Source of the DNA: an archaeon
GTDB taxonomy: Archaea > Nanobdellota > Nanobdellia > Woesearchaeales > UBA9642
Assembly (NCBI GenBank): GCA_043806035.1
Contig: JAZDHK010000041.1
Coordinates: 1-43,515, forward strand
Length of the DNA: 43,515 nucleotides
Direction of reading: 5' to 3'
The notes beneath the pieces are model-generated. The model worked only from the letters and a program-made list of their open reading frames with translations. It did no database searches and was not told where the DNA came from. Positions 7,714 to 25,100 of the stretch are shown here, one piece after another. Position 1 is the first letter of the stretch; the number at the start of each line of letters is the position of its first letter. A program made the position numbers and the translations under genes.

Positions 7714-8033
7714 CATCTTCTTTACGAGAGGACATTCTCAAGAGGTTCAAGGGAGATGCAGAGAACATATTCTTGCGCATGAAATCGCTCGAGGCAGAGC
7801 CGCACAAAGGAAAAGCTCTTGCACATGTAGCTGAAATAGTCATCAAGGAGCTTAAACATGAAAAATATCGTTTCTATTTCATCACAGACGGCAGAGTCCT
7901 GAAATTCGGCACGGAAGATGAACTGGCAGCATTACTCATAAAGTTTGTTCGGATGTCTGAGAAGAAAGACCAACAAAAGGTCATTAACAGTATCAAAGCG
8001 GTACTGCAGTCGATGGGTTTCAACGGTTTCTGA
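7695..8033 (+). CDS. RelE/ParE-fold toxin-like protein
   Basis: KVTIT...LEAEPHKGKAL...IKELKHEKYRFYF; 112 aa directly downstream of a small antitoxin. Confidence 0.65.
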   Translation: MAKVTITSSLREDILKRFKGDAENIFLRMKSLEAEPHKGKALAHVAEIVIKELKHEKYRFYFITDGRVLKFGTEDELAALLIKFVRMSEKKDQQKVINSIKAVLQSMGFNGF

Positions 8034-8094
8034 TGCTGTCTGTGTTGTTGCACTAAGAAACGGAGTCCTCTTGACACGATGGCACCATCCACCG

Positions 8095-8109
8095 CCGGGC
8101 GGGGCTATA
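8095..8109 (+). repeat. Direct repeat R2, tRNA-Gln-like 3' end
   Basis: CCGGGCGGGGCTATA, identical to R1. Confidence 0.8.
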
Positions 8110-8141
8110 AACAGTTTTGTGACATCAGAGAGACCAAATTT

Positions 8142-8735
8142 TTACCATTCAATAAACGCTTGGATGGCATGTTCTTTTCTAAGCTGTATCAAGTTTTTTT
8201 CTTCAATTATCTTATCATCTGCAGTAATCTGTTTTGAATTGTATGCTTTCTTAATTTTTTCAACAAGAAATCTCCGTTCATGAGCTAATTTTTTTATGTC
8301 TTCATTGAAAAAGTATATTTGCAAATCTTCTCGTAATTTTTTTTGTTTACTTTCCATCCTGATGATATCCTTACAGATATGAAGAAATCCTTTGATACAT
8401 TTTTCATAATCTGAATCATCAAGCTGGTCGAGAAATATTCGTATGGTTTGTTTTAGTGCGGATATCTTGAATTGTATGTGTCGCATTCCATGGCCTTTTT
8501 TATGATGATGTATCATCGTTTCTTTTGATTCTGTTGTGCCCTCAACTAGATATTTTGCTGATGAGAGGCTTAGGTTATATTCATCCTCCACAAGAGAATT
8601 TGTTTCTTCGAGCTCTATCTTCGTACCTTTTTCTGAATAGGTTATTCTCCAAGTGTTTTCTGTTTCTGAACGTATGTTCTGAAGATGTTTTCGGTTAGCA
8701 TATTCCTGAAGTATGTATCTGCTTGAAGATTTCAT
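8142..8735 (-). CDS. Hypothetical protein with His cluster (candidate toxin)
   Basis: 197 aa with IHHHKKGHGMRHIQF. ATGA overlap with the upstream gene. Confidence 0.6.
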   Translation of the reverse strand: MKSSSRYILQEYANRKHLQNIRSETENTWRITYSEKGTKIELEETNSLVEDEYNLSLSSAKYLVEGTTESKETMIHHHKKGHGMRHIQFKISALKQTIRIFLDQLDDSDYEKCIKGFLHICKDIIRMESKQKKLREDLQIYFFNEDIKKLAHERRFLVEKIKKAYNSKQITADDKIIEEKNLIQLRKEHAIQAFIEW

Positions 8736-9400
8736 TTTAGTACCTTCATGATATCTGAATATAACGAATCTCGTGATAGATTTGTCCGATTATATGCCTG
8801 TTTCCATTTACTTTGGCTATTGTAATCATCAACTGTTTCTAACTCATACAACTTTACATCGAATGTTTCTTCTAAGATTTGTTTCACACAGATTAAATAA
8901 ATCATTTCCTTTTCTTTTTTAGGCAATGTTGAAGGGCTTGTCCATTTTTTGTCAATCTTTACATTTACGATGTCTAAATCAACTTCCCAGCCCATATTTC
9001 CATTTTGTACTGAACTGTCAAGATTTGCTGTTAATCTCTTCGATCTCAGAAGCGCTATGATTGACAGGTCATTGTAAGTGCAAACAACATCATAACACTT
9101 GTTGTCTAATTCTACACTGACTGTGGTTGAAGTTCTTGCATATTTTGTGCCTACGACATTGTCTTTAAAAATAACCTCGGTTCCACCACCGTATCCAGTT
9201 CCATCGTCAAATCCGTGACCTGAAGCAGTTCCTCCGCCATAACCAGGATCATCTAGCATACCAACCATTTTTATTAATCTTAACAGTATCTGCTCGTGGG
9301 TTTCCTTACCTTTGGCTAGAGATTCCAGCATTTTCTTGGTTCGCTCTGACAGCCGCAGCGATGTTTGCTTATCCCGAGTGCTTACTTTAATTGTGTTCAT
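8732..9400 (-). CDS. Protein with N-terminal RHH-like antitoxin domain and extended C-terminus
   Basis: TSLRLSERTKKMLESLAKGKETHEQILLRLI resembles the antitoxin at 7504. Start placed at ATG 9400. Confidence 0.65.
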   Translation of the reverse strand: MNTIKVSTRDKQTSLRLSERTKKMLESLAKGKETHEQILLRLIKMVGMLDDPGYGGGTASGHGFDDGTGYGGGTEVIFKDNVVGTKYARTSTTVSVELDNKCYDVVCTYNDLSIIALLRSKRLTANLDSSVQNGNMGWEVDLDIVNVKIDKKWTSPSTLPKKEKEMIYLICVKQILEETFDVKLYELETVDDYNSQSKWKQAYNRTNLSRDSLYSDIMKVLK

Positions 9401-9416
9401 TTCGATTACCTTAGTT

Positions 9417-9434
9417 TGTATGCAATGTATGCAA
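9417..9434. promoter_or_regulatory. Tandem TGTATGCAA x2, putative RHH autoregulatory operator
   Basis: Perfect 9-bp tandem repeat between an AT-rich TATA-like region (about 9444-9456) and the start codon at 9400. Confidence 0.4.
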
Positions 9435-9524
9435 AATATGCTTTGTATATTTAAATCTTTTGATTTTGAATAATGCTTTTTACTAAAAGTTGGTCTCTGC
9501 CATGTCACTTAACCGATTGTCCAG

Positions 9525-9537
9525 CGGGCGGGGCTAT
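9525..9537 (+). repeat. Direct repeat R3, tRNA-Gln-like 3' end
   Basis: CGGGCGGGGCTAT, 13 nt shared with R1 and R2. Confidence 0.75.
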
Positions 9538-9564
9538 GTGCTATTAACGATAGCAGCGTCATTC

Positions 9565-10140
9565 CTAATAATTTTCCTCATGCAGTTCGAAGAACGACTG
9601 CGGGTGCAGGCAGGCGGGGCATTTTGCGGGGGCGGTCGTCCCCTCATGCAGATAACCGCAGTTGCGGCACTTCCAGATGCGTTTTTCTCCACGCACGAAC
9701 ACTTTGCCTTCCTCAAGATTCGTGAAGAGCTTGACGTATCGTTCCTGATGCGCCTTCTCGACAGTCGCGATCATCCTGAACGCCACGGCAATGTCGGGGA
9801 AGCCTTCCTCCTGAGCAATTTTTGCGAATTCAGGATAGAGCATGGTCCATTCTTCATGCTCACCTTCAGCTGCCGCCTTGAGATTTTCAAGCGTTGTTCC
9901 TATCTTTCCTGCAGGATACGTCGCCGTTATCTGCACGGGCCTGCCTTCCAGGAACTTGAAGAACCGCTTTGCATGCTCTTTCTCATTGAGGGAGGTCTCT
10001 GCGAAGATGGCCGAGATTTGTTCCAGACCTTCTTTCTTCGCCTGCGACGAGAAATAATCGTAGCGCATGCGCGCCTGACTCTCGCCAGCGAATGCTTTGA
10101 GGAGGTTCTGTTCGGTTCTGGTTCCTTGGAGCGGTTTCAT
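9565..10140 (-). CDS. rbr: Rubrerythrin
   Basis: NLLKAFAGESQARMRY, EKEHA and EKAH, plus a C-terminal rubredoxin domain WKCRNCGY...CPAC. Confidence 0.95.
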   Translation of the reverse strand: MKPLQGTRTEQNLLKAFAGESQARMRYDYFSSQAKKEGLEQISAIFAETSLNEKEHAKRFFKFLEGRPVQITATYPAGKIGTTLENLKAAAEGEHEEWTMLYPEFAKIAQEEGFPDIAVAFRMIATVEKAHQERYVKLFTNLEEGKVFVRGEKRIWKCRNCGYLHEGTTAPAKCPACLHPQSFFELHEENY

Positions 10141-10214
10141 GATTTTCTTTTGTGTTCCGTGTTTATTAAGTTTCTGGCAATAGATTAATAAATGCGTGCT
10201 GCAAGGTAAGACTC

Positions 10215-10844
10215 ATGCGGCAACTCTATTTTGTCAAATCCCTCGAGGAGGATTTTCACACAAAATTGCTTCGTGGCAAGAAGAAAATAAACTTCCAAAG
10301 CCTCAATGATATGCTCCGCCGCAAGATGATCAAGCCGAACACCATGAGTTTTGGCAGAAAGCGCAGGTTGAGCACGACCATACTCAGCGATAACTATCTG
10401 AAGACGTATCGGCCGCAAGGTATCATCTTCACGACGGCAGAAAAGCCAGAGTACGTCCTGCCTTGTGATCTGGTGCTGTTCAGCAAGGCAGAGAAAATCG
10501 TTGTGCATTATTATCGCATCAAGAACAACCTGCATGAGTACTACAACCACGAGCTCATTTCCGGGTTTGAGCGATTCCTCTTCAAAACATTCAATGCGTT
10601 GCTCAAGACGTTCTCATCGCCAAAGCAAGTCTGGACTGCAGTCAATGCTTTTCGCAAGCGTGCCGGCTGCGGTGCGTTGCAAAAAGAAAAGTATCGTCTC
10701 GTGGAGTACAATGAGGCAGTCTTTCACAAGCCCATACGAATAGTGCCTGTGGCCATTTTCGGTTACCGAAAAGAAGCACGAACCCTGGCAAAAAAACACC
10801 ACCTTCCCCATCACATGTCGGCAAAAGCGTTCTGGAAGGCGTGA
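10215..10844 (+). CDS. Hypothetical protein (possible ADP-ribosyltransferase-like fold)
   Basis: 209-aa ORF filling the gap, with LSTT...GIIF...YNEAV motifs. Confidence 0.6.
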   Translation: MRQLYFVKSLEEDFHTKLLRGKKKINFQSLNDMLRRKMIKPNTMSFGRKRRLSTTILSDNYLKTYRPQGIIFTTAEKPEYVLPCDLVLFSKAEKIVVHYYRIKNNLHEYYNHELISGFERFLFKTFNALLKTFSSPKQVWTAVNAFRKRAGCGALQKEKYRLVEYNEAVFHKPIRIVPVAIFGYRKEARTLAKKHHLPHHMSAKAFWKA

Positions 10845-12038
10845 TTATTTGTTGCTCATAATCTCAATGACATCCAGATGCTGCAGCACATGATCCTTGC
10901 CTATGGGCAGGCGCTTCTTGACGTCCATAGCCTTCACGAAATTCTTTCCGAAATCAGTGTGTAATTTGTAGGCGAACTCGAGCGCAGTCGTCGTCCCGGG
11001 AAGCAAGAAGCAGTCAGGCAATACTCTGCCGTACTGGTCCTCTAGCTTGTGCATGCCGCCAGGGAATACTGCTTTATACTTCAGCAGTTCAAAGACGGCC
11101 CTGTTCAGCACGTCCTGCACCCCCGTAGACCCCCCCTGATCAAGAACAGTCGTCTTAATGAATGCGAGCGCTGCCTGCTGCTTGTCGCTGAGACTTCCTG
11201 TAATTTCGTAATTGTTCTCCCCAGGAACGTACTCAATGAGATTATGCTTTGCTGCTTCCTTTAATGCAAGCTCTGATTCTGCAGAAACAGGCACGATGAG
11301 ATACTCAGGAAATTCCTTTTGTAGCCGCTCATAATTCTCCTTGCCCGTGCTCACATCTATTTTGTTTGCGGCAATAATCATGGGCTTTGCCTTCTTCCTG
11401 AGCAAAGAGGCAAGATGATGCAAGTCATCCTCAGTCCATTCCAAAATTCTCCCTCTATCCAGCCGGAGCTTTTCGATGCTGTCTTTCACCATCAGCTCAT
11501 CAACACCCATTCCCGAAAGCTGCTTTGCTATTGCCCTGTCGACGTCAGCATGCTCCTGCTGCACTTGCCTCGAGAATCTCCCCCAGGTCTTTTTCATGAT
11601 ATCAAGATACCAAAAGTCAAGCTCCTCTTCAAGAAATTTGATGTCCTCCGTAGGATCCCTCGTTCCGGGTGGGACAGGTTCTCCCTTCTCGTTCGTGCTG
11701 CCAGAAACGTCAATGACGTGAATGAGCGCGTTCGCCATGTTCAGATCGGAAAGGAACTGGTTGCCCATGCCCTTGCCTTCATGGGCGCCAGGGACGAGGC
11801 CTGCTACGTCGATCATCTCTACAGGCACGAAGCGGTTGTGTTTGAGACAAAACCCTTCTCGAGGATTGCACTGCACCTTAAAAAAAGTGTCCACGCACGG
11901 GATCTTGACGTATCCTGCCCCCCTGTTCGGAGCTATAGTTGCAAAGGGATAATTCGCGATGAGCACTTCAGCCAAAGTTGTGGCCTTGAAAAACGTGCTC
12001 TTGCCTACATTTGCTTTTCCCACGACTCCTATGAGCAT
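10845..12038 (-). CDS. ychF: OBG-family translation-associated GTPase/ATPase (archaeal YchF/Ygr210 type)
   Basis: GKANVGKST, YPFAT, DVAGLVPGAHEGKGMGNQFL, NKID, and a C-terminal TGS domain (FAYKLHTD). Confidence 0.92.
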   Translation of the reverse strand: MLIGVVGKANVGKSTFFKATTLAEVLIANYPFATIAPNRGAGYVKIPCVDTFFKVQCNPREGFCLKHNRFVPVEMIDVAGLVPGAHEGKGMGNQFLSDLNMANALIHVIDVSGSTNEKGEPVPPGTRDPTEDIKFLEEELDFWYLDIMKKTWGRFSRQVQQEHADVDRAIAKQLSGMGVDELMVKDSIEKLRLDRGRILEWTEDDLHHLASLLRKKAKPMIIAANKIDVSTGKENYERLQKEFPEYLIVPVSAESELALKEAAKHNLIEYVPGENNYEITGSLSDKQQAALAFIKTTVLDQGGSTGVQDVLNRAVFELLKYKAVFPGGMHKLEDQYGRVLPDCFLLPGTTTALEFAYKLHTDFGKNFVKAMDVKKRLPIGKDHVLQHLDVIEIMSNK

Positions 12039-12107
12039 AAACAACAGCAAACGAGGACGGTATAAAAATGTTTCTGCGTATTGCTACTTTTTCATTTCAG
12101 CTAACTT

Positions 12108-12113
12108 TTTAAA
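12108..12113 (+). promoter_or_regulatory. TATA box of the giant phosphotransferase gene (probably leaderless)
   Basis: TTTAAA about 25 nt upstream of GTG 12136. Confidence 0.45.
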
Positions 12114-12135
12114 TGTACTGCCAAGAAAAAGAACC

Positions 12136-15100
12136 GTGTTCATCAAACCCTTCACTGCCTTAACTATGCGAGACGTTTCCATTGCCGGAGGCAAAGGTGC
12201 CTCTCTGGGAGAGATGCTGCAAGCAGGCATCCCCGTTCCCGACGGCTTTGTCATTCTTGCCAGCACATTCGACGTATTCCTCAAGACAAACAAACTCGAT
12301 GCCACCATAGCAGCCATTCTTGCAAAAACAGAACACGAAGAAACGGCAGCTGTAGAGGAATCATCAAGAAAGATACAGACACGTATCCTCAATGCGGCAA
12401 TTCCCAAAGGCATCCAAACGGAGATTACTGCAGCATTCGCGAAGCTTGACACGATGTACGTCGCCGTCAGAAGCTCAGCAACAGCCGAAGATTCCTCCAG
12501 CGCAGCCTGGGCGGGACAATTGGACAGCCATCTCAACACTACAAAAGCAACGCTCCTTGAGAATGTGAAGCGCTGCTGGTCCAGCCTCTTCACCCCCAGA
12601 GCCATTTTCTACAGGTTCGAACAGAAACTCGAGAACGAACACGTCTCCGTCGCTGTCGTCGTCCAAAAAATGGTGGAGAGCGAACGATCAGGCATAGCGT
12701 TCACCGTTCATCCAGTGACGCAGAACAGGCAAGAGCTGCTCATCGAAGCAGGCTACGGCCTTGGTGAGGCAATCGTTTCAGGGCAAGTGACGCCTGACAA
12801 CTACACCATTCTCAAAAATCTTACTATCAAGGAAAAGAATCTTGCCGAGCAGACACGGCAGATCGTCAAAGGACAGGACGGCGGCGTGATGTGGGTTCCA
12901 TGTACGAAACAAGGACAGACGCTCTCTGACAAGGAAATCATCGAACTCTCGCAAATACTCCTACGCATCGAAAAGCATTACGGCTTCCCCAGCGACATCG
13001 AATGGGCGTACGAGAAAGGAAAGTTCTACATCGTCCAGTCAAGGCCGATAACGACGCTCACACCAGAGGAACCAACCCCTGTTGTTCCCTCGGGGCAGGT
13101 TATGCTCACCAAAATATTCTCCCGACAGAAATCCCTGATGTACATGATGATGTGGGACATTTCTGAACGTATAGGATACAAGGATTTCATCAACTATGAC
13201 CTCAAGCACAGCGTCTTCATCTATGATGGGCTGACGAGAAAAACATCCGTATGGTATGACCTACAAGAAGCAGAGCACATCAAGCAATTGCTCTTTGCAA
13301 AAGTCAAGGCGGACAAGACCTTTGTTGGAAACATCATCGCAAGACTGGACAAGCACTGGAAGCTCATTTCACCTTATTTGCTGAAAAAGAGCAGCATACG
13401 CTCTATCAAAGAATTCGAGCAGTACTACTCGAACATCACGCAGTGGTGGTCGGCGATGAACACAGTCTATCCCTTGATCAACGATCCCGATCTCTCTCCT
13501 GCAGCAAGCAGGACGTTCCTGCTCTACCGAGAACGTACAGAACGCTACACGGGAGAGATGGACACTACCATCTGCAATTTTTGGAAAAAATTGCTCCATT
13601 CCGATTTGGCAGAATTTGTCCTTCTCGATGAGGCGATCAAACTCTCGAAAAAAGAGATTCCTGCAGAACGTAAATCGATAGAAGAGAGAAAACGAGGATT
13701 TGGCATCTACAAAGGCAAACTTTACACGCCGACGGCGCTGAAGCAACGTATGGAAGAGCAAGTCCTTTCTTTGCACAAGGTAGAAACGCAGAACGTGCAG
13801 CAATTTACAGGTGTTACTGCATTTAAGGGCAACGTGCGGGGGCGAGTGAAGAAAATCATCGTCCGAGAAGACATCCGTGACTTTCGGCAAGGAGAAATAC
13901 TCGTTGCAGAAACGACATTCCCCGATCACGTTCCCGCCATGAAGAAAGCTGCCGCCATCATCACGGACGAGGGAGGCATTACCTGCCATGCAGCGATAAC
14001 AGCAAGAGAACTCAAGATTCCCTGCATCATCGGGACAAAAATAGCGACGCAAACACTCAGCGACGGCGACCTCGTCGAAGTAGACGCCACCGCAGGCATC
14101 GTACGCATCCTGACTGAGCAAACGTCTTCTCTCGTCGACACGTTCATCGCAGATCAGCATGGTAAAGAGATCACAAAGCACGAAGGCAACTTCTCTCTTC
14201 TTGTCTGGGGGACGGCTGCATCGCTGCAATCAAGTCCACTCTACAAGAAATACTACGCTGGTGATTTTAGCAGTCTGCTTTTTCTCGTTGAAGAAAAACG
14301 TGGCATCGGCTTCTTCAACATGGACGCGTACAAGCGCTGCGCAGAACAGGCAATAGATCAATACGTGCACGATCGTTTTCCCTTACTTGATGCATGCAAA
14401 AAAATTTTCGTCACCATCAAAAAAATGTATGATACCTACACTACAGAGACGCTCAAGACGTTTTCGGGCAAAGCACTTGAACAGATTATCATTCTTGCAT
14501 TCCAGACCTGGCGTAATTTGCAAGTGCTCACCCTCTTCTGTGAGGCGCTCGATGAGCACATGGTTAAGGCATATGCTGATAAAGAAAAAATAAAGATTGA
14601 CATCAACAGTTTCTTTGAGCATGCGTCCCTGTGTGACTTCGAGGAATTCCTCGCTATACGAGATAGGGCTCTGCTCGAGGAGAAAAGACCCGCATGGGTG
14701 CTTTCTAGCTATCTCTTTACGCCGAAAGCGACACCTGCATTGATTAATCAACTGATCAAAGAATCAGGTGGGCAGAAGAAACTTCGAGAAGAACTGCAAC
14801 GCTCGCTCGACCAAACCAAGAAAAATAAACAGCGTTCTGCAGCGTACAGAACAACACTTTCTGGCAAAGTGTGCAAACTCTACGACTACGTCAAGACGGC
14901 CATTGCATTGCGGGACATGCGCAAGGCAGATACGTTCAAGAACATTGCAGTCCTCTCTGACAGTGTCAGAGAAATGTTCAAGCGCATGCATCTTGATGAA
15001 GAAAATATCATCTATGCTCGTGCAGAAGACTTTGAAGAGAAAACATACGAGAACAAAGACTATAATGCCCTTCTACAGAGGAGAAAGCACGGTGTTGCAG

Positions 15101-18100
15101 TCCTTTACAGTGCAGCTGTAACCAAGGAAGAATGTGTGCCTTTCGAGGAAACGCGAAACAAAATATTCTCAGTTCAGGATGCCGGAAAAGAAAAAGACGT
15201 TACGGGAAATTGCGCTTGTTCGGGGAAAGCACAAGGGGCAGCACGCATCATCCTGAGCAGCAAAGATTTCGAAAAATTCCAGCAAGGAGACGTTCTTGTC
15301 ACATCCATGACGAGACCTGAATTTGTCCCGCTCTTGAAGAAAGCGTCAGCCATCATCACCGACGAAGGGGGCATCACCTGCCACGCAGCAATCATCTCTC
15401 GTGAGTTAAAGATTCCTTGTATCATTGGCACTAAGCATGCAACACGCACAATTAAAGACGGTCAGCTGCTTGAGATTAATGCCTCTGCAGGAGTCGTGCG
15501 CATCATCGAGAACCAGCAGCAATGGACGAAGCTCTGGGAGGACAGGTCATACGGCCTTGGCATCGTCTGCAGCGCAGAAAATTCAGTAACAGAACAGTTC
15601 ACCAAACGGTTTGACGTCGCTATGCAACTTATTGTTATTAGATATGAGAACGGCAAAAGCTCCTGCTATTGTCTGACCAATGATTTGCGAGCAGGAGGAC
15701 AAAAGATCATCGCAAAAATCAGGACGAGCGACTTCGCAAAAAAGACAATAAACGAGGTTAGAGCAGAGACGGAGAAGCTGAAATCATCCATTTCCCCGAT
15801 ACTGGATATGGAATTGCAGAGCAAAAATTATGAGCAATTGACAAACATGTATCGTGACGTTTTGCAGCGCCTTGAAGAATTCTATGCGGTCGCATTCATC
15901 CCCATCTTCTTGGAGACGGGAGAGAACCAGCTCTCAGATGAGACAGAACGCATCATCAAAGAGGCACTCGCATGCGAGAAACGAGAAAAGGAATTTGCAG
16001 AAATCTTCACCGTACTGCTCACGCCAACGACTCCCTCAACCATCATGGAAGAAGAACTCGCCTTGCTCCGTACGCTCAAGCAACTACGCGGATCTCCCCA
16101 AGAAATACTGCAGAGCATCCTCGTCAAAAAACACATTCGTGATTGGTCCTGGATTAGCTTCAATTTCGTTGACAAGATAGAATGGGATGAGAGCGTCTAT
16201 GCGGACAGGATACGAAAGATACTGGCAGAGAAAAAAATCGATCAAAAAATGCGCGAAATCCTCGACTATTCAAAAACGATACAGAAAAAGCAAGAATCCA
16301 TTCTCAAGAGCATTCGCTTCTCAAAAGAGGAGTTAGCACTCATTACTGCAACACGTCAATTCGCTGAAGTGAAAGAATACCGGAAGAACATCATCACGCT
16401 ACTCTTCTACTGTTGTTTTATCATTCTCAAAGAATTGGCCAGCAAGAAGAAAAGATCTCTGCCGGATATGAACTTCCTCACTCCCAACGAGATAGCAGAG
16501 CAGAAATACACAGAGGCAAAGGAGAGAATGACGTATTCTGTCATCCTTGTCAAGGATGGCAAATCCACCATCCTCACTGGCGACACTGCGCGAAAGAAAG
16601 CAGAAGAACTGCAGCTTGACGCAGAAGAGAAGATTGCAAACGTCGATGAACTCAAAGGGACGCCCGCACAAATTGGAAACGCAAAAGGCACCGTGCGCAT
16701 CGTGAACTCATTTGCTGATGTCAAAAAAGTCCAGGAAGGAGATATTCTCGTGAGCATCGCGACGTTCCCTGACCTCGTACCTGCAATGAAAAGAGCGGGC
16801 GCCATCGTCACGGACGAAGGGGGAATGACCTGCCACGCTGCCATCATCTCCCGAGAGCTCAAGAAGCCCTGCATTATCGGGACGAAGATAGCGACGAAGG
16901 TGCTGCACGATGGTGATATTGTCGAAGTCGATGCAAATAACGGTCTTGTACGGCGAGTCACGGAAAAGAAAACGTTCACGAAATCATATACGAGAGACTT
17001 CTCCATCATCATGGAAGAGGCATGGTATCATGGCTGCACGAAAGGACTGCAGGACGTGTTCGGTTGGACGATGCAGCACCTGCCGTTCGCCATCTATTAT
17101 CTCAACCAAGGATCCATCGAGGTATGGGAGAATGAAAAAGCGCGTAAGGAACTGCTCGACCGCATCCTTGAAGCGAACAAAAAAACCGCATTCTTGCAGA
17201 ACGTCCAGAAGAAATACGCAGCACTGCTCAAGCAGCTAGAGCCATCCTGGAAAAAAGGATATGCGGAGAATCTTCCTGCATTCGCGCAATCCCTTTTTGC
17301 CATCATGCCTTACTTCGTCGTCCAATACTACACTGCACTTGATGAACGAACCCCTCCTGCTATTCGGAAATTGGCGCTTGGCATGCGCAACACCGACGTC
17401 TTGTTCGATTGTTGCGACAAGATAATCAGGACATCGTTACTCGGAAAATCCATCATCAGAGGAGTTGAGACCTGCGTGCTTGAAAAAGAGCTTGAAAAGA
17501 TCCCTCCACCAAACGTTCTTGAGGAGAGAAAGAAACATTTCGTCGTCATTCCCGGAACGGTTGAAGCATGTCTGCCTCTAGAAAAATATGTAGAACAGAA
17601 TCCTACCGTACAACTCGTGCACACCAAAGGAGATTTTGACGGGCAACGATTGCAGGGCACGTGTGCATTCAAAGGCAAGGCGTCAGGAACAGTCCGTATA
17701 CTAAGAACCAAGGACCAGATAGCGCTTATTCAGGAAGGGGACGTGCTTGTCTCGCCCATGACCACTCCTGACTTTCTGCCTGCCATGAAGAAGGCAGCTG
17801 CCATCATTACCGATGAGGGAGGGATAACGTGCCATGCAGCTATCACTGCCCGTGAGCTCAAGAAGCCAACGGTCGTTGGCACGGAAATAGCGACACACGT
17901 ACTCAAGGACGGCATGTACGTTGAAGTTGACGCAGATAACGGGCTGATTCTTTTGCAAAAAGGCCAAGACAATGCACAAAATAATGCATTCACGAAACTT
18001 GTCGAAGAAGTCAAGCAAACACCCATGGACATCCAGAAAGCACAAGGAAACATCTGCGGACCAGACCTCGTGTTTCCCGTGTACGCATCAGCATCCATAC

Positions 18101-20862
18101 TTCCAGGAACGGCATACCCGCTCCAGCTCGGATACGTAAAGGAACTACACTTCCTCCAAATGACTCCCGTAACAGCATTAGCCAACCTCACACGCTCGTT
18201 ACGGACGATGATGAACACTCCTGAACGCTTTGACGCCATTCTCAAAAACGCGCACAAGGCAGCAGAACAGATGGATGCCGCATGGGCTGACTATCAACGA
18301 AACGGCTTCAGCAGCAAAACGTTCGACACGCTCATAACAAACATACGTGCATTCTGGCAGTACGGCATCCTCGGAGAGGATAAGGGTGCATTCCTCGAAT
18401 CCATACTCATCCCCCTTCTTGTCAAAAATCACGAACTTACTCAGAACGAGGCGCACAGCCTGCTCTCCGCACTCACCCATCCAGAAAGACCAGCATCATT
18501 CAGCAAGGAACGTCTCGATTTTTACAACTTGTGCCTTTCTGTCTCATCACTACAGGATACGCAGAGCAGTACAGCAAATGCACTCTGCAACAAACCATTG
18601 CTCACGAAACTGAACCGATACGTGACGGAATACTTTTTCAAAGACACGAACTTTGTCGACAGAAAAATAGTCACTCCAGAAAGCGTCTTGGCAGATATAC
18701 AGAAAGAGCTGCACGACATCAACGCCGTTCGCCAATCCCGCAAGGAAATACTCAATGGATTTGTTACGGTACGAAAAGAAAGAGAACACGCCACAAAAAA
18801 ATACACCTTCAGCGTAGAGGAAAGAAAGAAACTGGCATTTGCCCAAACATTCATCAGCTTTGTTGACGAGCGAAAAGAAGCAATGATGAAAACATTCTAC
18901 TACTTCTTCTCTGCCATTCATGACATTTGCGACAAACTCCATTTGTCCTATGCTGATGTGCAGTGGTTGACGGTCGATGAAATTCGTGCAATCCTGAATG
19001 AAAATATGCAGTTCGAACTAACGCGTGTACAGCAACGAAAACAGGGAACGATGCTCGTCTACTATCCAGGAAAACCCGTAATCATTTACACAGGAGGGCA
19101 GGCAGAGGCACTCTATGCCGTGTCGCAACATGAAGTGTACGAGGCAACCGTGAAAGGAATGGTTGCAAGCCCAGCAAAAGATGGAAAACGCATCAGAGGC
19201 AGAGCACGAATCATCACGAACCCTTCAACAAGCACATTCAACAAAGGAGACGTGCTTGTCGCAAGCATGACACGTATAGAGTTCGTGCCGCTCATGAAGA
19301 AAGCAGCAGCCATCATCACGGATGAGGGAGGCATTGCCTGTCATGCAGCCATTGTCTCCAGAGAATTAAACATTCCCTGCATCATCGGCACGAAAAATGC
19401 AACGCAAGCGCTCAAGATCGGAGACCTTCTCGAGGTGGACACAACGACGGGCAGGGTACACGTAATCGAGCGAAAAACAGACATGCAAGAACTACACGAA
19501 CGCGTTGCATCAACAGCATGGTACAGGCAAGGAGGATCCTTGCTGCCGTTCTTCATCAGCACGCCCTACCAATGCGTGTATCAGGCATGGGGGCAGGATG
19601 CTGGATTCATCATCCAGCAAGGCATGGACAACATCGCATACTTCAACAAAAGCATAGAGAAGGAAAAACTCGATGAGGCAATAGCAGCATCCCTTGAAGA
19701 CAAGCAGTTCTTGCAGAAAAAGATGAAGGAATGGAGAGTTCTCGTGCGACTGCAGCAAGAAGAACTCAACATGCTGCTGCAGGAACCTACACGAGACATT
19801 CGTGCGTTCGTCAAGGCAACCATCGATGCCTGGGCAGCAACGCTCTTCATCGAAGAAACTGATCCCTGGGGGGATATCGTCCTGCACGACTATCTGCGCA
19901 CGTATGGTGTTTCAGACAAAGAGCTTGCCATACTCACCTCTCCCAAACACTACGGCTACCTGCAACAGGAAGTGCTTGATTTCTGGAAAGCAGTCGAGAA
20001 GGGAGGGGCTCTCAAAAAACATCACGCAACGTATTCCTGGTATTTGGCGTCATGGCTGCACGCCCCGCAACTCACTGAAGAACACTTCCTTGGCAGATTG
20101 CACAAGAAAGGAAAAGTGGGCATACGCAAAGAAGCCAACACCATACGCAAACACCGCCAGGAGACGGAACGGCAGCGGCAGCACCTTCTCAAAAAATATG
20201 CGTTCGACACAAAAACTCGGCGTGTGCTCGACTACTTCAGAACACTGAACGACTGGCGTGATGAACGGAAAAGAGAACTTGTCTGCAAGACAAACACCCT
20301 TCTCGATCAGCTCATCCACCGAGTGTGCATGTTGAACGCCATTCCCCTGCAGGAAGCAAAACACCTTGCCTTCTTCGAAATCAGCAGTCTCCTCCTTACC
20401 GAACAGTACAAGGAAGAGCTGAAGAAGAGAAACCAACAATCGTACGCGTACTGGCAAGACACGCCCGGACACTACACGTATTTGTGTGGGGCAGAGGCAG
20501 AACAGCTCAAGGCAGCCCTCGAGGAAGCCCTCAAAAGTGCACAAAAGGACCTCTGCGGCAGGCCAGCCTATCCAGGAAAAACTCAAGGAATAGTCAGAAT
20601 CATCAATGCGCCCGCTGACTTTTCAAAGATGAATCCTGGAGACATTCTCGTTTCGGTCATGACCCGCCCTGAACTCGTCCCTGCGATGAAAAAGGCAGGA
20701 GCGATTATCACTGATGAAGGAGGCATTACCTGTCACGCTGCCATCATCTCCCGAGAGCTCAAGATTCCGTGCATTGTCGGCACGCAATTAGCAACCACCA
20801 TACTGAAAGACGGAGATGTCGTAGAAGTCGATGCTATGCAGGGCAAAGTTCACAAACTATAG
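12136..20862 (+). CDS. Giant modular PEP-utilising-family phosphotransferase: PPDK_N ATP-grasp domain plus 6 x [acceptor-like domain + phospho-His swivel]
   Basis: N-terminal GGKGASLGEM, VAVRSSATAED, VVVQKMV and DIEWA...QSRPITT. Six TDEGGxxCHAAI motifs with His codons at 13987, 15382, 16834, 17833, 19342 and 20734. No C-terminal PEP-binding TIM barrel. Start placed at GTG 12136 (2908 aa) because the track start overlaps ychF. Confidence 0.9.
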   Translation: MFIKPFTALTMRDVSIAGGKGASLGEMLQAGIPVPDGFVILASTFDVFLKTNKLDATIAAILAKTEHEETAAVEESSRKIQTRILNAAIPKGIQTEITAAFAKLDTMYVAVRSSATAEDSSSAAWAGQLDSHLNTTKATLLENVKRCWSSLFTPRAIFYRFEQKLENEHVSVAVVVQKMVESERSGIAFTVHPVTQNRQELLIEAGYGLGEAIVSGQVTPDNYTILKNLTIKEKNLAEQTRQIVKGQDGGVMWVPCTKQGQTLSDKEIIELSQILLRIEKHYGFPSDIEWAYEKGKFYIVQSRPITTLTPEEPTPVVPSGQVMLTKIFSRQKSLMYMMMWDISERIGYKDFINYDLKHSVFIYDGLTRKTSVWYDLQEAEHIKQLLFAKVKADKTFVGNIIARLDKHWKLISPYLLKKSSIRSIKEFEQYYSNITQWWSAMNTVYPLINDPDLSPAASRTFLLYRERTERYTGEMDTTICNFWKKLLHSDLAEFVLLDEAIKLSKKEIPAERKSIEERKRGFGIYKGKLYTPTALKQRMEEQVLSLHKVETQNVQQFTGVTAFKGNVRGRVKKIIVREDIRDFRQGEILVAETTFPDHVPAMKKAAAIITDEGGITCHAAITARELKIPCIIGTKIATQTLSDGDLVEVDATAGIVRILTEQTSSLVDTFIADQHGKEITKHEGNFSLLVWGTAASLQSSPLYKKYYAGDFSSLLFLVEEKRGIGFFNMDAYKRCAEQAIDQYVHDRFPLLDACKKIFVTIKKMYDTYTTETLKTFSGKALEQIIILAFQTWRNLQVLTLFCEALDEHMVKAYADKEKIKIDINSFFEHASLCDFEEFLAIRDRALLEEKRPAWVLSSYLFTPKATPALINQLIKESGGQKKLREELQRSLDQTKKNKQRSAAYRTTLSGKVCKLYDYVKTAIALRDMRKADTFKNIAVLSDSVREMFKRMHLDEENIIYARAEDFEEKTYENKDYNALLQRRKHGVAVLYSAAVTKEECVPFEETRNKIFSVQDAGKEKDVTGNCACSGKAQGAARIILSSKDFEKFQQGDVLVTSMTRPEFVPLLKKASAIITDEGGITCHAAIISRELKIPCIIGTKHATRTIKDGQLLEINASAGVVRIIENQQQWTKLWEDRSYGLGIVCSAENSVTEQFTKRFDVAMQLIVIRYENGKSSCYCLTNDLRAGGQKIIAKIRTSDFAKKTINEVRAETEKLKSSISPILDMELQSKNYEQLTNMYRDVLQRLEEFYAVAFIPIFLETGENQLSDETERIIKEALACEKREKEFAEIFTVLLTPTTPSTIMEEELALLRTLKQLRGSPQEILQSILVKKHIRDWSWISFNFVDKIEWDESVYADRIRKILAEKKIDQKMREILDYSKTIQKKQESILKSIRFSKEELALITATRQFAEVKEYRKNIITLLFYCCFIILKELASKKKRSLPDMNFLTPNEIAEQKYTEAKERMTYSVILVKDGKSTILTGDTARKKAEELQLDAEEKIANVDELKGTPAQIGNAKGTVRIVNSFADVKKVQEGDILVSIATFPDLVPAMKRAGAIVTDEGGMTCHAAIISRELKKPCIIGTKIATKVLHDGDIVEVDANNGLVRRVTEKKTFTKSYTRDFSIIMEEAWYHGCTKGLQDVFGWTMQHLPFAIYYLNQGSIEVWENEKARKELLDRILEANKKTAFLQNVQKKYAALLKQLEPSWKKGYAENLPAFAQSLFAIMPYFVVQYYTALDERTPPAIRKLALGMRNTDVLFDCCDKIIRTSLLGKSIIRGVETCVLEKELEKIPPPNVLEERKKHFVVIPGTVEACLPLEKYVEQNPTVQLVHTKGDFDGQRLQGTCAFKGKASGTVRILRTKDQIALIQEGDVLVSPMTTPDFLPAMKKAAAIITDEGGITCHAAITARELKKPTVVGTEIATHVLKDGMYVEVDADNGLILLQKGQDNAQNNAFTKLVEEVKQTPMDIQKAQGNICGPDLVFPVYASASILPGTAYPLQLGYVKELHFLQMTPVTALANLTRSLRTMMNTPERFDAILKNAHKAAEQMDAAWADYQRNGFSSKTFDTLITNIRAFWQYGILGEDKGAFLESILIPLLVKNHELTQNEAHSLLSALTHPERPASFSKERLDFYNLCLSVSSLQDTQSSTANALCNKPLLTKLNRYVTEYFFKDTNFVDRKIVTPESVLADIQKELHDINAVRQSRKEILNGFVTVRKEREHATKKYTFSVEERKKLAFAQTFISFVDERKEAMMKTFYYFFSAIHDICDKLHLSYADVQWLTVDEIRAILNENMQFELTRVQQRKQGTMLVYYPGKPVIIYTGGQAEALYAVSQHEVYEATVKGMVASPAKDGKRIRGRARIITNPSTSTFNKGDVLVASMTRIEFVPLMKKAAAIITDEGGIACHAAIVSRELNIPCIIGTKNATQALKIGDLLEVDTTTGRVHVIERKTDMQELHERVASTAWYRQGGSLLPFFISTPYQCVYQAWGQDAGFIIQQGMDNIAYFNKSIEKEKLDEAIAASLEDKQFLQKKMKEWRVLVRLQQEELNMLLQEPTRDIRAFVKATIDAWAATLFIEETDPWGDIVLHDYLRTYGVSDKELAILTSPKHYGYLQQEVLDFWKAVEKGGALKKHHATYSWYLASWLHAPQLTEEHFLGRLHKKGKVGIRKEANTIRKHRQETERQRQHLLKKYAFDTKTRRVLDYFRTLNDWRDERKRELVCKTNTLLDQLIHRVCMLNAIPLQEAKHLAFFEISSLLLTEQYKEELKKRNQQSYAYWQDTPGHYTYLCGAEAEQLKAALEEALKSAQKDLCGRPAYPGKTQGIVRIINAPADFSKMNPGDILVSVMTRPELVPAMKKAGAIITDEGGITCHAAIISRELKIPCIVGTQLATTILKDGDVVEVDAMQGKVHKL

Positions 20863-21735
20863 TCTATGCCAGTGCTTCTTGTAATAGAGCTCGTTGCATT
20901 CCACTTTGGCGAATTCTGCTGTGCCGATGAGCTCTCTGATGCCTGTTCTCTTGTACAAGAATGTGTCTAGTGTCCACGAGTGGCTAAGCCCTATGGTTAT
21001 GGTGTTGTTGCTGATGTCTTGTTCAGCATGTTCTAGCACATCCTTGACGAATGCGGTGATGTTCCTTTCGACGATGTCCGGATCGGCAACATTTCCTGCA
21101 CGAACGTGCTGCATGAACGCATCCTTGTGCTCGACCCATTGGAGAAAGGCATCGAACTCCGTCCCTTTTTCCATAACTTTTCCGATAAGCTCCATGACGG
21201 GAGCATTTGCAGGTCCCATGAACAATTGCACATGCTCTCTTGGCCCATCAATAGTCACTGCAGCACCCGTCCGCTGGGCATCATTGACGTGCTGGATAAT
21301 CCTTCCAAAAATTTCCGTGCGGTTCAGCTCACTCGTCCATATGCGCAAGAGCACGGGTTTTATCGAGAGCAAGACATCATCACGCAGATGCTCTCCCGCA
21401 AGTTTTGCCTGCAAAACCCCTTTATTAGAAAGTGCCCTTCCTGGTTCTTTCGTCTTGTCAGGATGCCTGAACAAATAAACGCTCGGCAGCAATGTGTAGT
21501 GGCTAAGCGAGTCTGCAAGCTGCGCATACTGAGTAGGAACATTATTGTTTTTTTCAATCTCTTTCAGGCATCTGACGGCAATCTCGAGATGATATCTCTT
21601 CTTGGCATGAATGTCCTCTCGCTTGCTCATCTTCTCGAGAAAAGGCAGCATGTTCTTGGCCTGGGCAGCGATGAGCTTCTGCTGACCAGTCTTTATGAGA
21701 CGGTTCAGACGCTGGATGTCTTGGAAAACAGCCAT
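20857..21735 (-). CDS. Histidine phosphatase superfamily protein with N-terminal helical extension
   Basis: YLFRHP, LSNKGVLQA, WTSELNRT and IGLSHS correspond to the RH(G), LxxxG, SxxxR and H motifs. Confidence 0.7.
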   Translation of the reverse strand: MAVFQDIQRLNRLIKTGQQKLIAAQAKNMLPFLEKMSKREDIHAKKRYHLEIAVRCLKEIEKNNNVPTQYAQLADSLSHYTLLPSVYLFRHPDKTKEPGRALSNKGVLQAKLAGEHLRDDVLLSIKPVLLRIWTSELNRTEIFGRIIQHVNDAQRTGAAVTIDGPREHVQLFMGPANAPVMELIGKVMEKGTEFDAFLQWVEHKDAFMQHVRAGNVADPDIVERNITAFVKDVLEHAEQDISNNTITIGLSHSWTLDTFLYKRTGIRELIGTAEFAKVECNELYYKKHWHRL

Positions 21736-22064: not shown

Positions 22065-22166
22065 GCACTCTCGGGAACGTCCGTTTTCTTTATTTGTTTT
22101 TCGAAAAAAAAAGATTTATAAACGACTTTGCTCAGGAGTGAAGAAAACAGGCATAAAGGTGGTAGT

Positions 22167-25100
22167 GTGAAGAAACTGTTTCTCCTCTCATTGGTGGCAA
22201 TGCTTTTGGTCGTTTCTGCATGCAGCACGGGACAGGCGACAAAGCTCTATCTCGGCAACGTACAGGCAGTCGATAAATCTGAAGGCACACTTTATGTCGA
22301 GAGCAATCCGACAGGTGCAGCCATATCCATCTACAACGAAAAAAGCACAGGCGCAACTCCTTGGGAAGAGAGAGGAAGGACTCCCCTCAACATGAACTTG
22401 CCACCCGGAACATATGTTTTTAGAGTTGAGTTGGAAGAGAGAAAAGTAGTAGAGCAAAAGGTAACTGTTCTTGCAGGTCAGATCTCGAGAATACGCATAG
22501 AACTCCCTCTGCTCAACGTTCCTCCCGTCATACTCAACTTCTCCGTCACTCCAAACGGCAACACGCCAGAACGCACATCAGCAATCATGGCATTCGCTTC
22601 TGATGAAGACAATAACCTCGCAAGCATGACGCTCGAACTGTCATTCAACGGTGAACCCTGGTCGGCATATGCTACACAGCCTTGTTCGGGAGCAACCTGC
22701 CAGTTAATCGCGTCACACTACAGAGAGAATCCAGGATCGTACAGGTATAGAGTGACTGCAGTAGACAGCACGGGGGTGACATCCACCTCTCAAATTATTG
22801 ACGCACTCTATGAACTAACATGCACTGATTCTGACGGCGGCATCAACTATGAAGTCCGAGGACAGGTTGTTGGCCCAATAGGGCCTGGCGAGGGCAGCAA
22901 CGGCTGGGATTACTGCTTTACTCCCAATCCTGATGGCAGCGGCACTCCGGGAGAGACAGGAACACGCCTCCTCGAATGGTATTGTGTGGGGAATGGCGTC
23001 AACCAAGACATTGTGACGTGCAACTGCAGTGGTGGCGCATGCCTTCCCGCAAATAACTCGTGGTGCAACGACACGGATGGTGGTCTGAACTATGACGTGT
23101 GGGGTAGGTGCACTGATTCGTTGGGCAATAATTATCCTGATGTTTGTGGCGGTAATGGCTCGGTGATGGAAAGTGTTTGTGTTGGTCCCCCTGGCAATCA
23201 GTCCTGTGGCGTGCAATACTGGACTTGCTCATATGGCTGCAGCGAAGGAGCATGTGTGAGCAACCAGATGGGCGTTTTCCTTCATGTGAACGACGAAACA
23301 CAAGTGGGCAATCATACTGTGCGCTTAATCAATGTCACCAGTTCAGGTGATGTTGTGGTTAGCATTGATGGATACTGGGTATACGTTGATGGAGCAGCTG
23401 ATTCCAATGGTGTCAATGTCGTCATTCTTGACACGTTCTATTCTAATGATGTCAATGAACGATCTGCAACGTTGCAACTCTTCTCAATTGTTCCTGGGAA
23501 TTTCATGCGAGTGGGTTATGTTGATACCGTTCCCCCTGATTATGTTGATACTGTGGAACTCATCAATGTGGCATCAAACTCACTGACTGTTGTAGTTAAT
23601 GTGAGCGGTGTCATGCAGACCGTCACCAACTCCGAAACAGTCAATGATGTGCAGATAAATGTCCTGCAGACCATGTACACAGACACTATTGCGTATAGAG
23701 CTGCTGTGCTGCAGTTCGGAAATACTGACTGTGGCAGCGAATGCAATACCACTGATGGTGGAGATAATATTTTCGTTAGAGGCACGGACACGTATTGGGA
23801 TCTCGGAGCGAACGGTGTTTGTGAGCTTAGGACGTGGACAGACTATTGCGTGGACAACGACACGTTATGGGAATACAATTGTAGATCAGCAGGCATACGA
23901 GAATGTCCGAACGGCTGCAGCGATGGCGCATGCAACCAGAACAACAACAGTACGCCACCGACCATACTGAATTTCTCAGTGGTGCCTTCAGGTGTTACGT
24001 CACAACCAACTTCGCAGGTCTATGTGTATGCAACATCCCATGGTGCCAACATGAATCATATTGATGTATGGGTGACTAAGGATGGTGTAAACCAAGAACC
24101 GATGACTGTTTATTGTTCGGGAACATCCTGCACATTTAATCAGGTGACAACGCGTAATTCATCCGGCTATTATTTGTATTCACCTATAGTCTATGATGCA
24201 TTCGGTAGAGTGGATTCGGAGCCTTCAATAGCTGTCAACTACACCCAATCTGGAAATGTTTGCACGGATTCCGACGGCGGCCTGAACTACGATGTTTCAG
24301 GTTCGGTATTCCTGAACGGGATGAACGTGTGCAATGACTTCTGCACATCAGGAACCCAAGTGAGGGAGTGCTATTGCAGCTCGGGAAATAACGCCACTAT
24401 CCTGCACTTTTGCGGTGCAGGCCAGTACTGCTCGAACGGAGCCTGCGTGCTGAACCACAACCCAACAATAAGCTACTTCCAGGTAATGCCTGATGGTACG
24501 ACCAGTCAGAACTGGTCGAATGTGACGGTGGTTGCGCTGGATCAGGATAACAACATGCACAACATAACCGTGGCAGTGAGACTTAATAATACCTGGCAGT
24601 GGTACTCGACGTACTGTTATGGCAGCCCCTGCGTGTATAGCTTCATACACTACAGGACACTTCAGGGCATGTACAATTACACTGCCTTCGCTTTAGATGT
24701 TGCGGGCGGCTGGAGTAATCAGAACTCTGTATTGGTGAACTACACAGATAGTGGTTCTTGCTCTGACTCGGATGGTGGGCTGAATTATTACACGTCTGGA
24801 TACGTAACGGGCAATTTGATGAATGGCACACCATATACGCAGTACGACTTTTGCGCCAGTGGTAGTTTGCTCGCTGAACAATATTGTAGTGGTACTATTC
24901 CTGCATCAGCAGTTTACACATGTCCCAACGGCTGCAACGCTAACAGATGCATGAACCAAACGAACCAGCCACCAAATCTGACGTACGTCTACGTCCAGTA
25001 CCAATACACGAATACGACATCAAGTATAAGTAACGTAACCTGGTCTGCATTTGACATAAACGACAACATGGCATATGTGGAGTTAAAGGTCTACCGTAAT

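Follow-up and report, generated by a model that had tools for sequence, protein, structure and literature searches.

The gene at positions 12136–20862 (+ strand) of contig JAZDHK010000041.1, a 43,515-nucleotide (nt) stretch of Woesearchaeales DNA (assembly GCA_043806035.1) referred to here as the window, probably encodes a one-to-many small-molecule dikinase of the rifampin phosphotransferase (RPH) type. Its 2,908-amino-acid (aa) product was found to carry a single ATP-grasp domain followed by six modules, each consisting of a divergent spacer domain and a swivel domain with an intact catalytic His. Structural models of modules 5 and 4 place them beside the rifamycin-acceptor and swivel domains of RPH, in part only for module 4. 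The dikinase chemistry and the small-molecule nature of the acceptors are predicted by analogy with that enzyme.

An uninterrupted frame on the + strand runs from 11959 to 20862 (2,967 codons). The GTG at 12136 is the likely start, giving the 2,908-aa protein with a stop codon at 20860–20862. In support of this start, the alignments of homologues begin at its residue, and the DNA upstream is taken up by a divergent Obg/YchF-like GTPase gene at 10845–12050. Direct reading of the sequence also located a TATA-box-like element, TTTTTAAAT, at 12104..12112 (+), 24–32 nt 5' of the GTG. It is possibly a leaderless archaeal promoter.

A Pfam scan of the protein returned one PPDK_N domain (PF01326; E 1.5e-94; profile positions 2–316 of 328) and six PEP-utilizers stretches (PF00391; E 3e-146). 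The same scan found no PEP-utilizers_C domain (PF02896), the phosphoenolpyruvate (PEP)/pyruvate TIM barrel, and detected no carbohydrate-binding or protein-interaction domains. The catalytic motif TDEGG[I/M][T/A]CHAAI is intact in all six swivels. One PPDK_N domain, six swivels with intact His and no pyruvate barrel is the layout given in the original prediction, which had been made from the DNA letters. That prediction also placed the divergent spacers at ~220–390 aa; they are present, with measured lengths of 254, 373, 392, 241, 411 and 372 aa in modules 1–6, so that the range is 241–411 aa.

The ATP-grasp domain, the single ATP-binding "charger" of the protein, covers aa 1–313 (12136–13074). 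Module 1 (13075–14112) joins a short acceptor domain (aa 314–567) to swivel 1 (aa 568–659), with its catalytic His at aa 618 (nt 13987). Modules 2 (14113–15507; acceptor aa 660–1032; His1083, nt 15382) and 3 (15508–16959; acceptor aa 1125–1516; His1567, nt 16834) have long acceptor domains. Module 4 (16960–17958) is again of the short class (acceptor aa 1609–1849; His1900, nt 17833), and its class-conserved Arg143, in module numbering, is encoded at nt 17386–17388. The last two modules are long: module 5 at 17959–19467 (acceptor aa 1942–2352; His2403, nt 19342), with a conserved Arg305-Lys306 pair in module numbering at nt 18871–18876, and module 6 at 19468–20859 (acceptor aa 2445–2816; His2867, nt 20734). 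All of these features lie on the + strand. As searched by sequence against the PDB, the ATP-grasp domain matched PEP synthase 8a8e (2e-95) and RPH 5fbs (3.1e-79; query residues 6–323 against chain residues 8–330). The best PDB sequence match for the swivel was also 8a8e.

The nature of the long spacers was assessed with an AlphaFold2 model of module 5, calculated from an alignment of 75 relatives. The model reached a predicted local distance difference test score (pLDDT) of 95.0 and a predicted template modelling score (pTM) of 0.93. Its six best Foldseek matches were all entries of the Listeria enzyme, RPH-Lm, with E from 8.5e-16 to 1.5e-13. Residues 1–503 of the module were superposed by VIA-align on RPH 287–866 (Z 19.2, root-mean-square deviation (rmsd) 5.0, 435 residues aligned), and the acceptor domain alone on RPH 325–752 (Z 13.5, 320 residues aligned). 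The rifampin-binding domain (RIF-BD) of RPH comprises residues 327–754 (PMC4844700). Over the structural alignment the acceptor domains are only 14–16% identical to the RIF-BD. Moreover, a profile of module-5-type proteins aligned with RPH 590–866 (E 1.3e-30). The module 5 spacer alone, searched by sequence against the PDB, gave chance coiled-coil matches only.

The remaining long modules were tied to module 5, the long module with a structural model, by profile. A long-class profile built without the window scored 335 bits on module 5 (LK5), 99 bits on module 3 (LK3; E 1e-32), 95 bits on module 6 (LK6; E 2e-31) and 42.5 bits on the spacer of module 2 (LK2; E 2e-15). When the module 5 acceptor domain was used as query in a word-index search, nothing among proteins of 276–881 aa scored, which is a sensitivity limit of the method; HMMER, run exhaustively over 1.84 billion representatives, identified 176 relatives of the module 5 spacer. 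Most of these are ~470–530 aa long and consist of the spacer and then the swivel alone.

A conserved D-x-R-K motif of the long class falls on the RPH helix Arg666-Glu667...Lys670, where its D is aligned to Glu667 and its K to Lys670. Its Arg is near-invariant (at least 90%) across 63 long acceptor domains in which the mean column identity is 18%. Mutagenesis showed Arg666 and Glu667 of RPH to be essential for the second phosphotransfer (PMC4844700). By its position, the long-class Arg may be the catalytic equivalent of Arg666.

The short class was represented by a model of module 4 (AlphaFold2; pLDDT 95.1, pTM 0.91). RPH-Lm was its only multi-domain match, with Z 19.8 against 5fbt over 278 aligned residues, ~105 of them in the swivel, at an rmsd of 7.0 Å; by Foldseek, E was 3.4e-12 and TMq just 0.32. 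Aligned by hhalign, the short and long classes matched with a probability of 100% (E 3.7e-70; 333 columns including the swivel), the long class carrying ~150–170 additional helical residues. The short class has a conserved Arg of its own, found in 40 of 44 sequences, and both modules 1 and 4 of the window have it. Two earlier ideas about this class were discarded. In a first six-module alignment the Arg of an "ERT" motif in the short modules had been equated with that of D-x-R-K, and the class alignment shows a different one, Arg143 of module 4. The short modules had also been taken to be without the N-terminal α/β part, which was wrong: the module 4 model retains this part, and the deficit lies inside the helical part. 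The six units are all assigned as RIF-BD-like acceptor plus swivel, firmly for the four long units and probably for the two short ones. The RPH architecture proposed beforehand for the units, together with the AlphaFold and Foldseek comparison suggested for it, was borne out in module 5, which covers the RIF-BD and swivel of RPH-Lm, and in part in module 4.

The genome encodes its PEP-metabolizing enzymes elsewhere. A complete ppsA was confirmed at 37868–40288, as predicted, with PPDK_N, PEP-utilizers and PEP-utilizers_C domains, and the 1.5 Mb genome (93.7% complete) encodes pyruvate phosphate dikinase (PPDK) on another contig (C25). With its missing PEP-utilizers_C domain and a separate ppsA and PPDK in the genome, the giant protein is not the housekeeping PEP synthase, in agreement with the earlier view. 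The genome total is eight swivel domains, six in the giant gene and one each in ppsA and PPDK, so that all of the modules sit in the giant gene. The contig is archaeal, carrying RFC-like, TrmB and YGR210-type GTPase genes and a 106-nt tRNA, and its ppsA groups with archaeal PEP synthases.

The NCBIfam PEP-synthase equivalogs NF005057 and TIGR01418 nevertheless passed their cut-offs on the whole protein (1029.6 against 598; 947.2 against 739.75). These scores are sums over seven stretches. The first unit alone scored 442.7 and single modules 112–123 bits, all below the cut-offs. Passing a cut-off by summing seven partial matches explains the name "phosphoenolpyruvate synthase" on several relatives. 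Annotation pipelines will continue to name such proteins PEP synthase, which is a hazard. The rifamycin-phosphotransferase equivalogs, also summed over seven stretches, remained below their cut-offs on the whole protein (NF041857, 625.6 against 999 bits; NF000283, 438 against 1700 bits), with 342 bits for the first unit and 67.7 bits for module 5. By these scores and its domain content, the giant protein is neither a rifamycin phosphotransferase nor a PEP synthase.

The giant gene is not an artefact, and its domain pattern goes far beyond what chance would give. Compared pairwise, its six swivels share 51–66% identity in protein and 58–69% in DNA. The sole DNA repeat family within the gene is that of the six 197-nt swivel cores (63–76% identity), and repeat-driven misassembly is unlikely because these repeats are too diverged at the DNA level. 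The GC content is even over the gene and its flanks. Two public DNA sequencing runs, both from one sample, contain the gene, and no RNA run containing it was found among the public runs listed. Matching contigs from the two runs (up to 658 nt, low depth) covered 27 of 30 bins without joints or indels. They were given little weight: they are short, none spans a boundary between modules, and their origin is probably the source sample itself.

Stronger support comes from independent assemblies, which contain proteins of the same kind. A protein search restricted to 1,599–5,089 aa gave 105 matches, the window's own protein included, from Parcubacteria, Paceibacterota, Patescibacteria, Woesearchaeota, Nanoarchaeota and sources without names. 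With a hidden Markov model (HMM) of the swivel, at least three swivels were found in 102 of the 110 sequences examined, all 1,500 aa or longer, a set that includes the window protein, four open reading frames (ORFs) from the loci described below and eight sequences with fewer than three swivels, mostly outside the family. The 102 divide into 48 with three swivels, 31 with four, 13 with five, five with six, four with seven and one with nine. In this set the ATP-grasp domain is mostly N-terminal; it is internal or C-terminal in eight sequences, absent in a few and possibly doubled in P0035. Classified by module type, the window protein reads 3-1-0-5-0-19. Genome G026 has 3-1-0, like modules 1–3, and G009 has 1-0-19-1, in which the pairs 1-0 and 0-19 resemble modules 2–3 and 5–6. 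The survey of module number in bacteria of the Candidate Phyla Radiation (CPR) and archaea of the DPANN group that had been proposed with the prediction yielded ~100 proteins with 3–9 modules.

The fused form proved to be one arrangement of a system that also occurs in pieces. Species-representative genomes were scanned with the first unit, giving 80 loci, of which 53 belong to the family; the others are PEP synthases, RPH-length enzymes and PpsAB-like pairs. Among the 53 family loci, the ATP-grasp has a frame of its own in 34, ~316–360 aa long (471 in one), and is fused to 1–3 modules in the other 19. Module genes of ~340–640 aa adjoin the grasp gene on the same strand, with frequent overlaps. 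The number of swivels per locus was zero in seven loci, one in 13, two in 12, three in 10, four in three, five in six (L021, L029, L033, L039, L046, L058), six in one (L055) and seven in one (L042), counts that are affected by the contig ends cutting many of the 53 loci. The suggestion that the giant might be the fused form of stand-alone PEP-mobile-domain proteins was thereby supported, stand-alone modules with a stand-alone grasp being the commoner arrangement. What is constant is one charger with many acceptor modules; fusion is the variable. Queried in the same way, Thermodesulfobacteriota loci L087–L092 showed the classical pair of a 322-aa grasp and a ~585-aa module.

Multi-swivel genes or arrays were present in six of 41 genomes of the window's own order. 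Long-type acceptor domains occurred in 36 of the 201 genomes sampled from the phylum, representing 34 of 158 genera. They lie mostly in tandem stand-alone genes, but seven of these genomes had frames that reach 1,500 aa or more, up to 4,201 aa. G025, one of the six genomes of the order, combines a 2,815-aa five-swivel protein without a grasp, at least five stand-alone modules and a 341-aa stand-alone grasp on another contig.

Several further observations were made on the arrays. A giant frame on contig G025:C1 (L012:3-11789; 6,471 aa by genome search, 3,929 aa retrieved) contains a PP2C phosphatase, a partial PPDK_N and a swivel, and is a different, likewise unusual dikinase fusion. Swivel-only ORFs of 112–121 aa lie inside CPR arrays at L029:6684-7019 and L042:13503-13865, and in L042 the ORF directly 5' of it is a 361-aa acceptor domain without a swivel. 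These ORFs indicate either that modules can be divided further or that there are frameshifts. Two other CPR arrays contain, respectively, a gene for an AbiEii-type nucleotidyltransferase toxin (L025:15086-15757) and one with a Fic domain (L084:5195-6244).

The acceptor domains of the window are more similar to domains of other proteins than to one another. The nearest relatives of each were found in other proteins and at other chain positions, with 24–49% identity, compared with at most 25% between sister domains. Module 1 is closest to module 1 of P0011 (49%), module 2 to module 2 of P0005 (44%) and module 6 to module 3 of P0010, which is G009 (36%). Single-linkage clustering at 80 bits or more sorted 547 acceptor domains into 72 clusters, a set enriched in module-5-type proteins owing to how it was gathered. 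At 130 bits or more, nine of 642 module pairs within one protein belonged to the same cluster, where shuffling gave 8.4; with the threshold lowered to 80 bits the number was 67, somewhat above the 41.7 ± 6 of shuffled sets. On these comparisons the modules are old, diverged cassettes and not recent duplicates. In addition, swivels travel with their acceptor domains: the swivel of the best orthologous module is 61–74% identical, compared with 52–66% for sister swivels.

The swivel and the grasp are better conserved. Swivels are 51–75% identical across the family (mean column identity 61% in 43 sequences), and the grasp of the window is 54–62% identical to 28 of 29 stand-alone grasp ORFs compared. 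Conservation of this kind would be expected if the docking interface were shared. A tree calculated from 88 grasp domains united the array-type grasps in a clade of 57 rows, 47 bacterial and 10 archaeal, with a support of 100 in the Shimodaira–Hasegawa-like approximate likelihood ratio test (SH-aLRT). The grasp of the window's ppsA lies outside this clade. The archaeal rows are scattered in several places inside it, where many inner forks are weakly supported, and from this dispersal transfer between CPR bacteria and DPANN archaea is likely. As a side observation, the stand-alone grasp of G025 (L011:4549-5571, G025:C6) lies outside the array clade, nearer to archaeal PEP synthases, and is 40.5% identical to the giant's grasp and 41.6% to that of ppsA. 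Its position suggests an independent recruitment.

Directly convergent with the giant gene, at 20857..21735 (− strand), is a 292-aa ORF that, by hhalign, ESM Atlas and homologue position, probably encodes a divergent His_Phos_1-like protein. It had no match in Pfam (at E 0.01 or better), in NCBIfam or, by sequence, in the PDB, and a Pfam search with its archaeal homologues gave no family. Aligned by hhalign with a family of in-array ORFs (family C), it reached a probability of 67.8% (E 4.9e-5), and the two sets of RH and HSW motifs coincided. In the ESM Atlas it fell among His_Phos_1 clusters (score 0.94), with structural TM of 0.59–0.61 over 194–204 residues. The ORF carries FRH and LSHSW motifs, the second His being invariant in all seven aligned sequences. 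Homologues lie directly 3' of fused dikinase genes in G012 (E 6e-21) and G009 (E 2e-11). Four related phosphatase-like families account for 24 ORFs in 18 of the 53 loci, inside arrays or within 2.5 kb of them (261 kb), and for none in 427 kb of farther flank, a contrast with a built-in bias, since it was in-array ORFs that served to define the families. Several of the in-array ORFs match Pfam His_Phos_1, with E down to 8.7e-14, and at two loci HAD phosphatases take the place of the His_Phos_1-type ORFs.

The neighbour is probably an accessory part of the dikinase system. It could be a product phosphatase, catalyse a mutase-like step or reset phosphohistidine. More speculatively, it would remove the phosphate at a later stage, either from the products, as in trap-and-release or pathway turnover, or from the phosphohistidine itself. 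PADLOC matched no defence-system model to the giant protein or to this neighbour.

In the favoured small-molecule dikinase, the single N-terminal ATP-grasp domain would bind ATP, and the catalytic His of any of the six swivels would attack its β-phosphate, giving AMP, Pi and phosphohistidine. This chemistry is established for RPH, PpsAB and HpeHI. The charged swivel is predicted to dock on its own RIF-BD-like acceptor domain, where the phosphate would be passed to a hydroxyl of the bound small molecule with the assistance of the conserved acceptor-domain Arg. Because the six acceptor domains are of different, anciently diverged types, up to six substrates are expected, and up to six different compounds might thus be phosphorylated for one ATP-binding domain. 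Charging of the swivels may occur in cis or in trans. Since stand-alone grasps serve stand-alone modules in the relatives, the fused protein could plausibly be charged in trans as well, even from one molecule to another. In HpeHI, CreHI and PpsAB, an ATP-grasp subunit and a RIF-BD-plus-swivel subunit form a transient complex, and HpeH by itself moves phosphate between substrates (PMC12167813). The original prediction had offered either a multi-substrate phosphotransferase or an intramolecular relay. The former is favoured, because every module has its own acceptor domain and conserved Arg and nothing indicates a swivel-to-swivel relay.

Several points weigh against this dikinase model. In the models of modules 4 and 5 the next acceptor domain starts 2–4 residues past each swivel end. 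Such short linkers would tether swivels 1–5 on both sides, unlike the swivel of RPH, which is C-terminal and free and must travel ~49 Å (PMC4844700). The HMM alignment sets the invariant long-class Arg opposite Pro669 of RPH and not opposite Arg666. The acceptor fold is less certain for two of the six modules, owing to the high rmsd and low TMq of module 4, and the long-class HMMER profile does not match the short acceptor domains of modules 1 and 4. Finally, a phosphatase-fold neighbour could turn simple phosphorylation into a futile cycle if the two reactions are not kept apart, either in time or by pathway.

A broader proposal is more tentative. The system may be a programmable multi-substrate kinase, in which one charger serves interchangeable modules that ultra-small symbionts, the CPR bacteria and DPANN archaea, shuffle, fuse, split and exchange between the two domains of life, and which, with its phosphatase-fold partners, captures and processes host-derived small molecules in a form of phospho-trapping salvage. 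The inactivation or scavenging of small molecules had been suggested as the purpose in the original prediction, and either might apply. If true, the programmable kinase would be a general gene-economy solution replacing many separate kinases in reduced genomes.

The giant protein might, as a rather less probable alternative, be an activation platform whose modules phosphorylate hydroxyl or enol groups to prime coupling, carboxylation or elimination, feeding several biosynthetic or catabolic steps. PigC, RedH and HapC activate in this manner in prodiginine condensation, and PpsAB acts ahead of phenylphosphate carboxylation. From the acceptor interior to its end, module 5 is matched equally well by the PigC and RedH models of NCBIfam (residues 271–502 against PigC 638–881, E 1.3e-23) and by the RPH models, and some arrays are interleaved with M20 peptidase, carbamoyltransferase, NTP-transferase and RmlD-like genes. 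Nevertheless, the arrays are not regularly accompanied by any coupling enzyme for a following step; their one recurrent partner is the phosphatase-fold family, which also supplies the sole operon partner of the window gene. CPR and DPANN genomes have, moreover, few biosynthetic pathways. In favour of a platform, the known split relatives PpsAB, CreHI and HpeHI all initiate catabolic pathways (PMC12167813). Detoxification, in which the modules would inactivate antibiotics or toxic secondary metabolites of hosts or neighbours as RPH does rifamycins, is improbable. The closest solved structure is RPH-Lm, and a CPR genome survey lists rph-like genes as resistance candidates (PMC8651080). However, the acceptor domains share little sequence with the RIF-BD, the rifamycin-phosphotransferase equivalog stayed far below its cut-off, dozens of acceptor types (the 72 clusters) seem many for resistance alone, and a co-encoded phosphatase would reverse the inactivation.

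Similarly improbable is a phosphorelay or macromolecule kinase, in which one swivel would hand phosphate to the next, or the phosphate would end up on a protein or polymer, for instance a surface glycan (as with glucan water dikinase), and not on small molecules. Swivel-type domains of the phosphotransferase system are known to transfer phosphate from His to His, and the histidine-phosphatase-fold neighbour could be a phosphohistidine phosphatase. Against a relay, each swivel is paired with its own RPH-like acceptor and modelled as a compact docked unit (pTM 0.91–0.93), swivel and acceptor are inherited together, and the stand-alone single module, the commonest form, would be needless in a linear chain. 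Action on a macromolecule finds no counterpart in the Pfam scan, which gave no carbohydrate-binding or protein-interaction domain. The least credible alternative, to a degree that leaves it barely worth considering, is that of an assembly chimera, a decaying pseudogene or a plain PEP synthase. The PEP-synthase equivalogs do score above cut-off on the whole protein, and the read support consists of short contigs at low depth whose origin is probably the window's own source sample. Yet those scores are sums in which single units fall short, and the PEP-binding barrel is absent. The frame is unbroken over 8.7 kb with all catalytic motifs intact, the repeats are too diverged to misjoin, the run contigs show neither joints nor indels, and G026 and G009 share partial module order among ~100 independent assemblies with 3–9 modules.

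Other features of the window were recorded apart from the dikinase locus. The region 8001–9000 has a GC content of 0.35 compared with ~0.48 elsewhere, and four consecutive ORFs without a Pfam family lie at 8142–8735, 8732–9508, 9490–10188 and 10215–10844. Just 3' of the dikinase locus, at 22128–25268 (+), a 1,046-aa protein with an N-terminal PEGA domain as its only recognizable domain is possibly a surface protein. The tRNA at 28767–28872 (+) scored 53.5 bits with Rfam and was missed by ARAGORN; at 106 nt it is probably an intron-containing archaeal tRNA. Two large ORFs with overlapping ends occupy 31292–35757 (−), one of 740 aa without a Pfam match and one of 755 aa in which a T2SSE/type-IV secretion ATPase domain is confined to the C-terminal half. 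They may form a pilus or archaellum-type assembly pair with long extensions of no known family.

Of the described systems, RPH-Lm (5FBS/5FBT/5FBU, 5HV1-3) is the nearest. It has the same order of ATP-grasp, helical acceptor and His swivel as the giant protein and is the best structural match of modules 5 and 4, with an acidic/basic helix under the swivel His common to both. The same dikinase chemistry, ATP giving AMP, Pi and phospho-acceptor, is presumed by analogy. The domain ratio in RPH is 1:1:1 whereas it is 1:6:6 in the giant protein. The swivel of RPH is free and C-terminal and the inner swivels of the giant are neither, and in two modules the acceptor is trimmed by ~150–170 residues, unlike that of RPH. 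By predicted fold and by motifs, the giant protein is nevertheless placed within the RPH-like superfamily.

The split enzymes HpeHI, CreHI and PpsAB have grasp and acceptor-swivel subunits in the layout of the stand-alone relatives described here (PMC12167813). In HpeHI-type enzymes the grasp and the acceptor/swivel lie on separate chains, whereas the window protein is fused. Those systems combine one grasp with one ~600-aa acceptor subunit, act on phenolics and occur in free-living bacteria, whereas this family combines one grasp with six fused or up to seven separate modules per locus, has acceptors of 240–410 aa and is hosted by CPR bacteria and DPANN archaea. The array-type grasps also form their own clade (SH-aLRT 100). 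PigC, RedH and HapC share the RPH-like three-domain build, but all of their model scores were far below cut-off (82.9 against 1300 bits), and these ligases are single modules of pigment gene clusters, which are absent at the window gene. PEP synthase and PPDK have homologous ATP-grasp and swivel domains, the giant protein being without their PEP/pyruvate TIM barrel.

No description of a multi-swivel or one-to-many dikinase was found in the full-text literature, subscription-only papers being outside its scope, which agrees with the original statement that no enzyme of this layout had been described. A preprint on giant genes of Omnitrophota lists PPDK_N as one domain among many in unrelated giant proteins (10.1101/2023.11.21.568195). 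The chemistry and the domains are known; the stoichiometry and the modular organization are undescribed. RPH-type dikinases have so far been described as single enzymes or as one-to-one pairs, and the one-to-many layout, present in the sampled archaeal phylum and in many CPR lineages, would be a new build of a multi-specific kinase. It points to an unrecognized, widespread metabolism in organisms whose physiology is mostly deduced from missing pathways, and it corrects a systematic "PEP synthase" misannotation that distorts gluconeogenesis calls in CPR and DPANN reconstructions. The dozens of diverged acceptor domains would also constitute a natural library for small-molecule phosphorylation.

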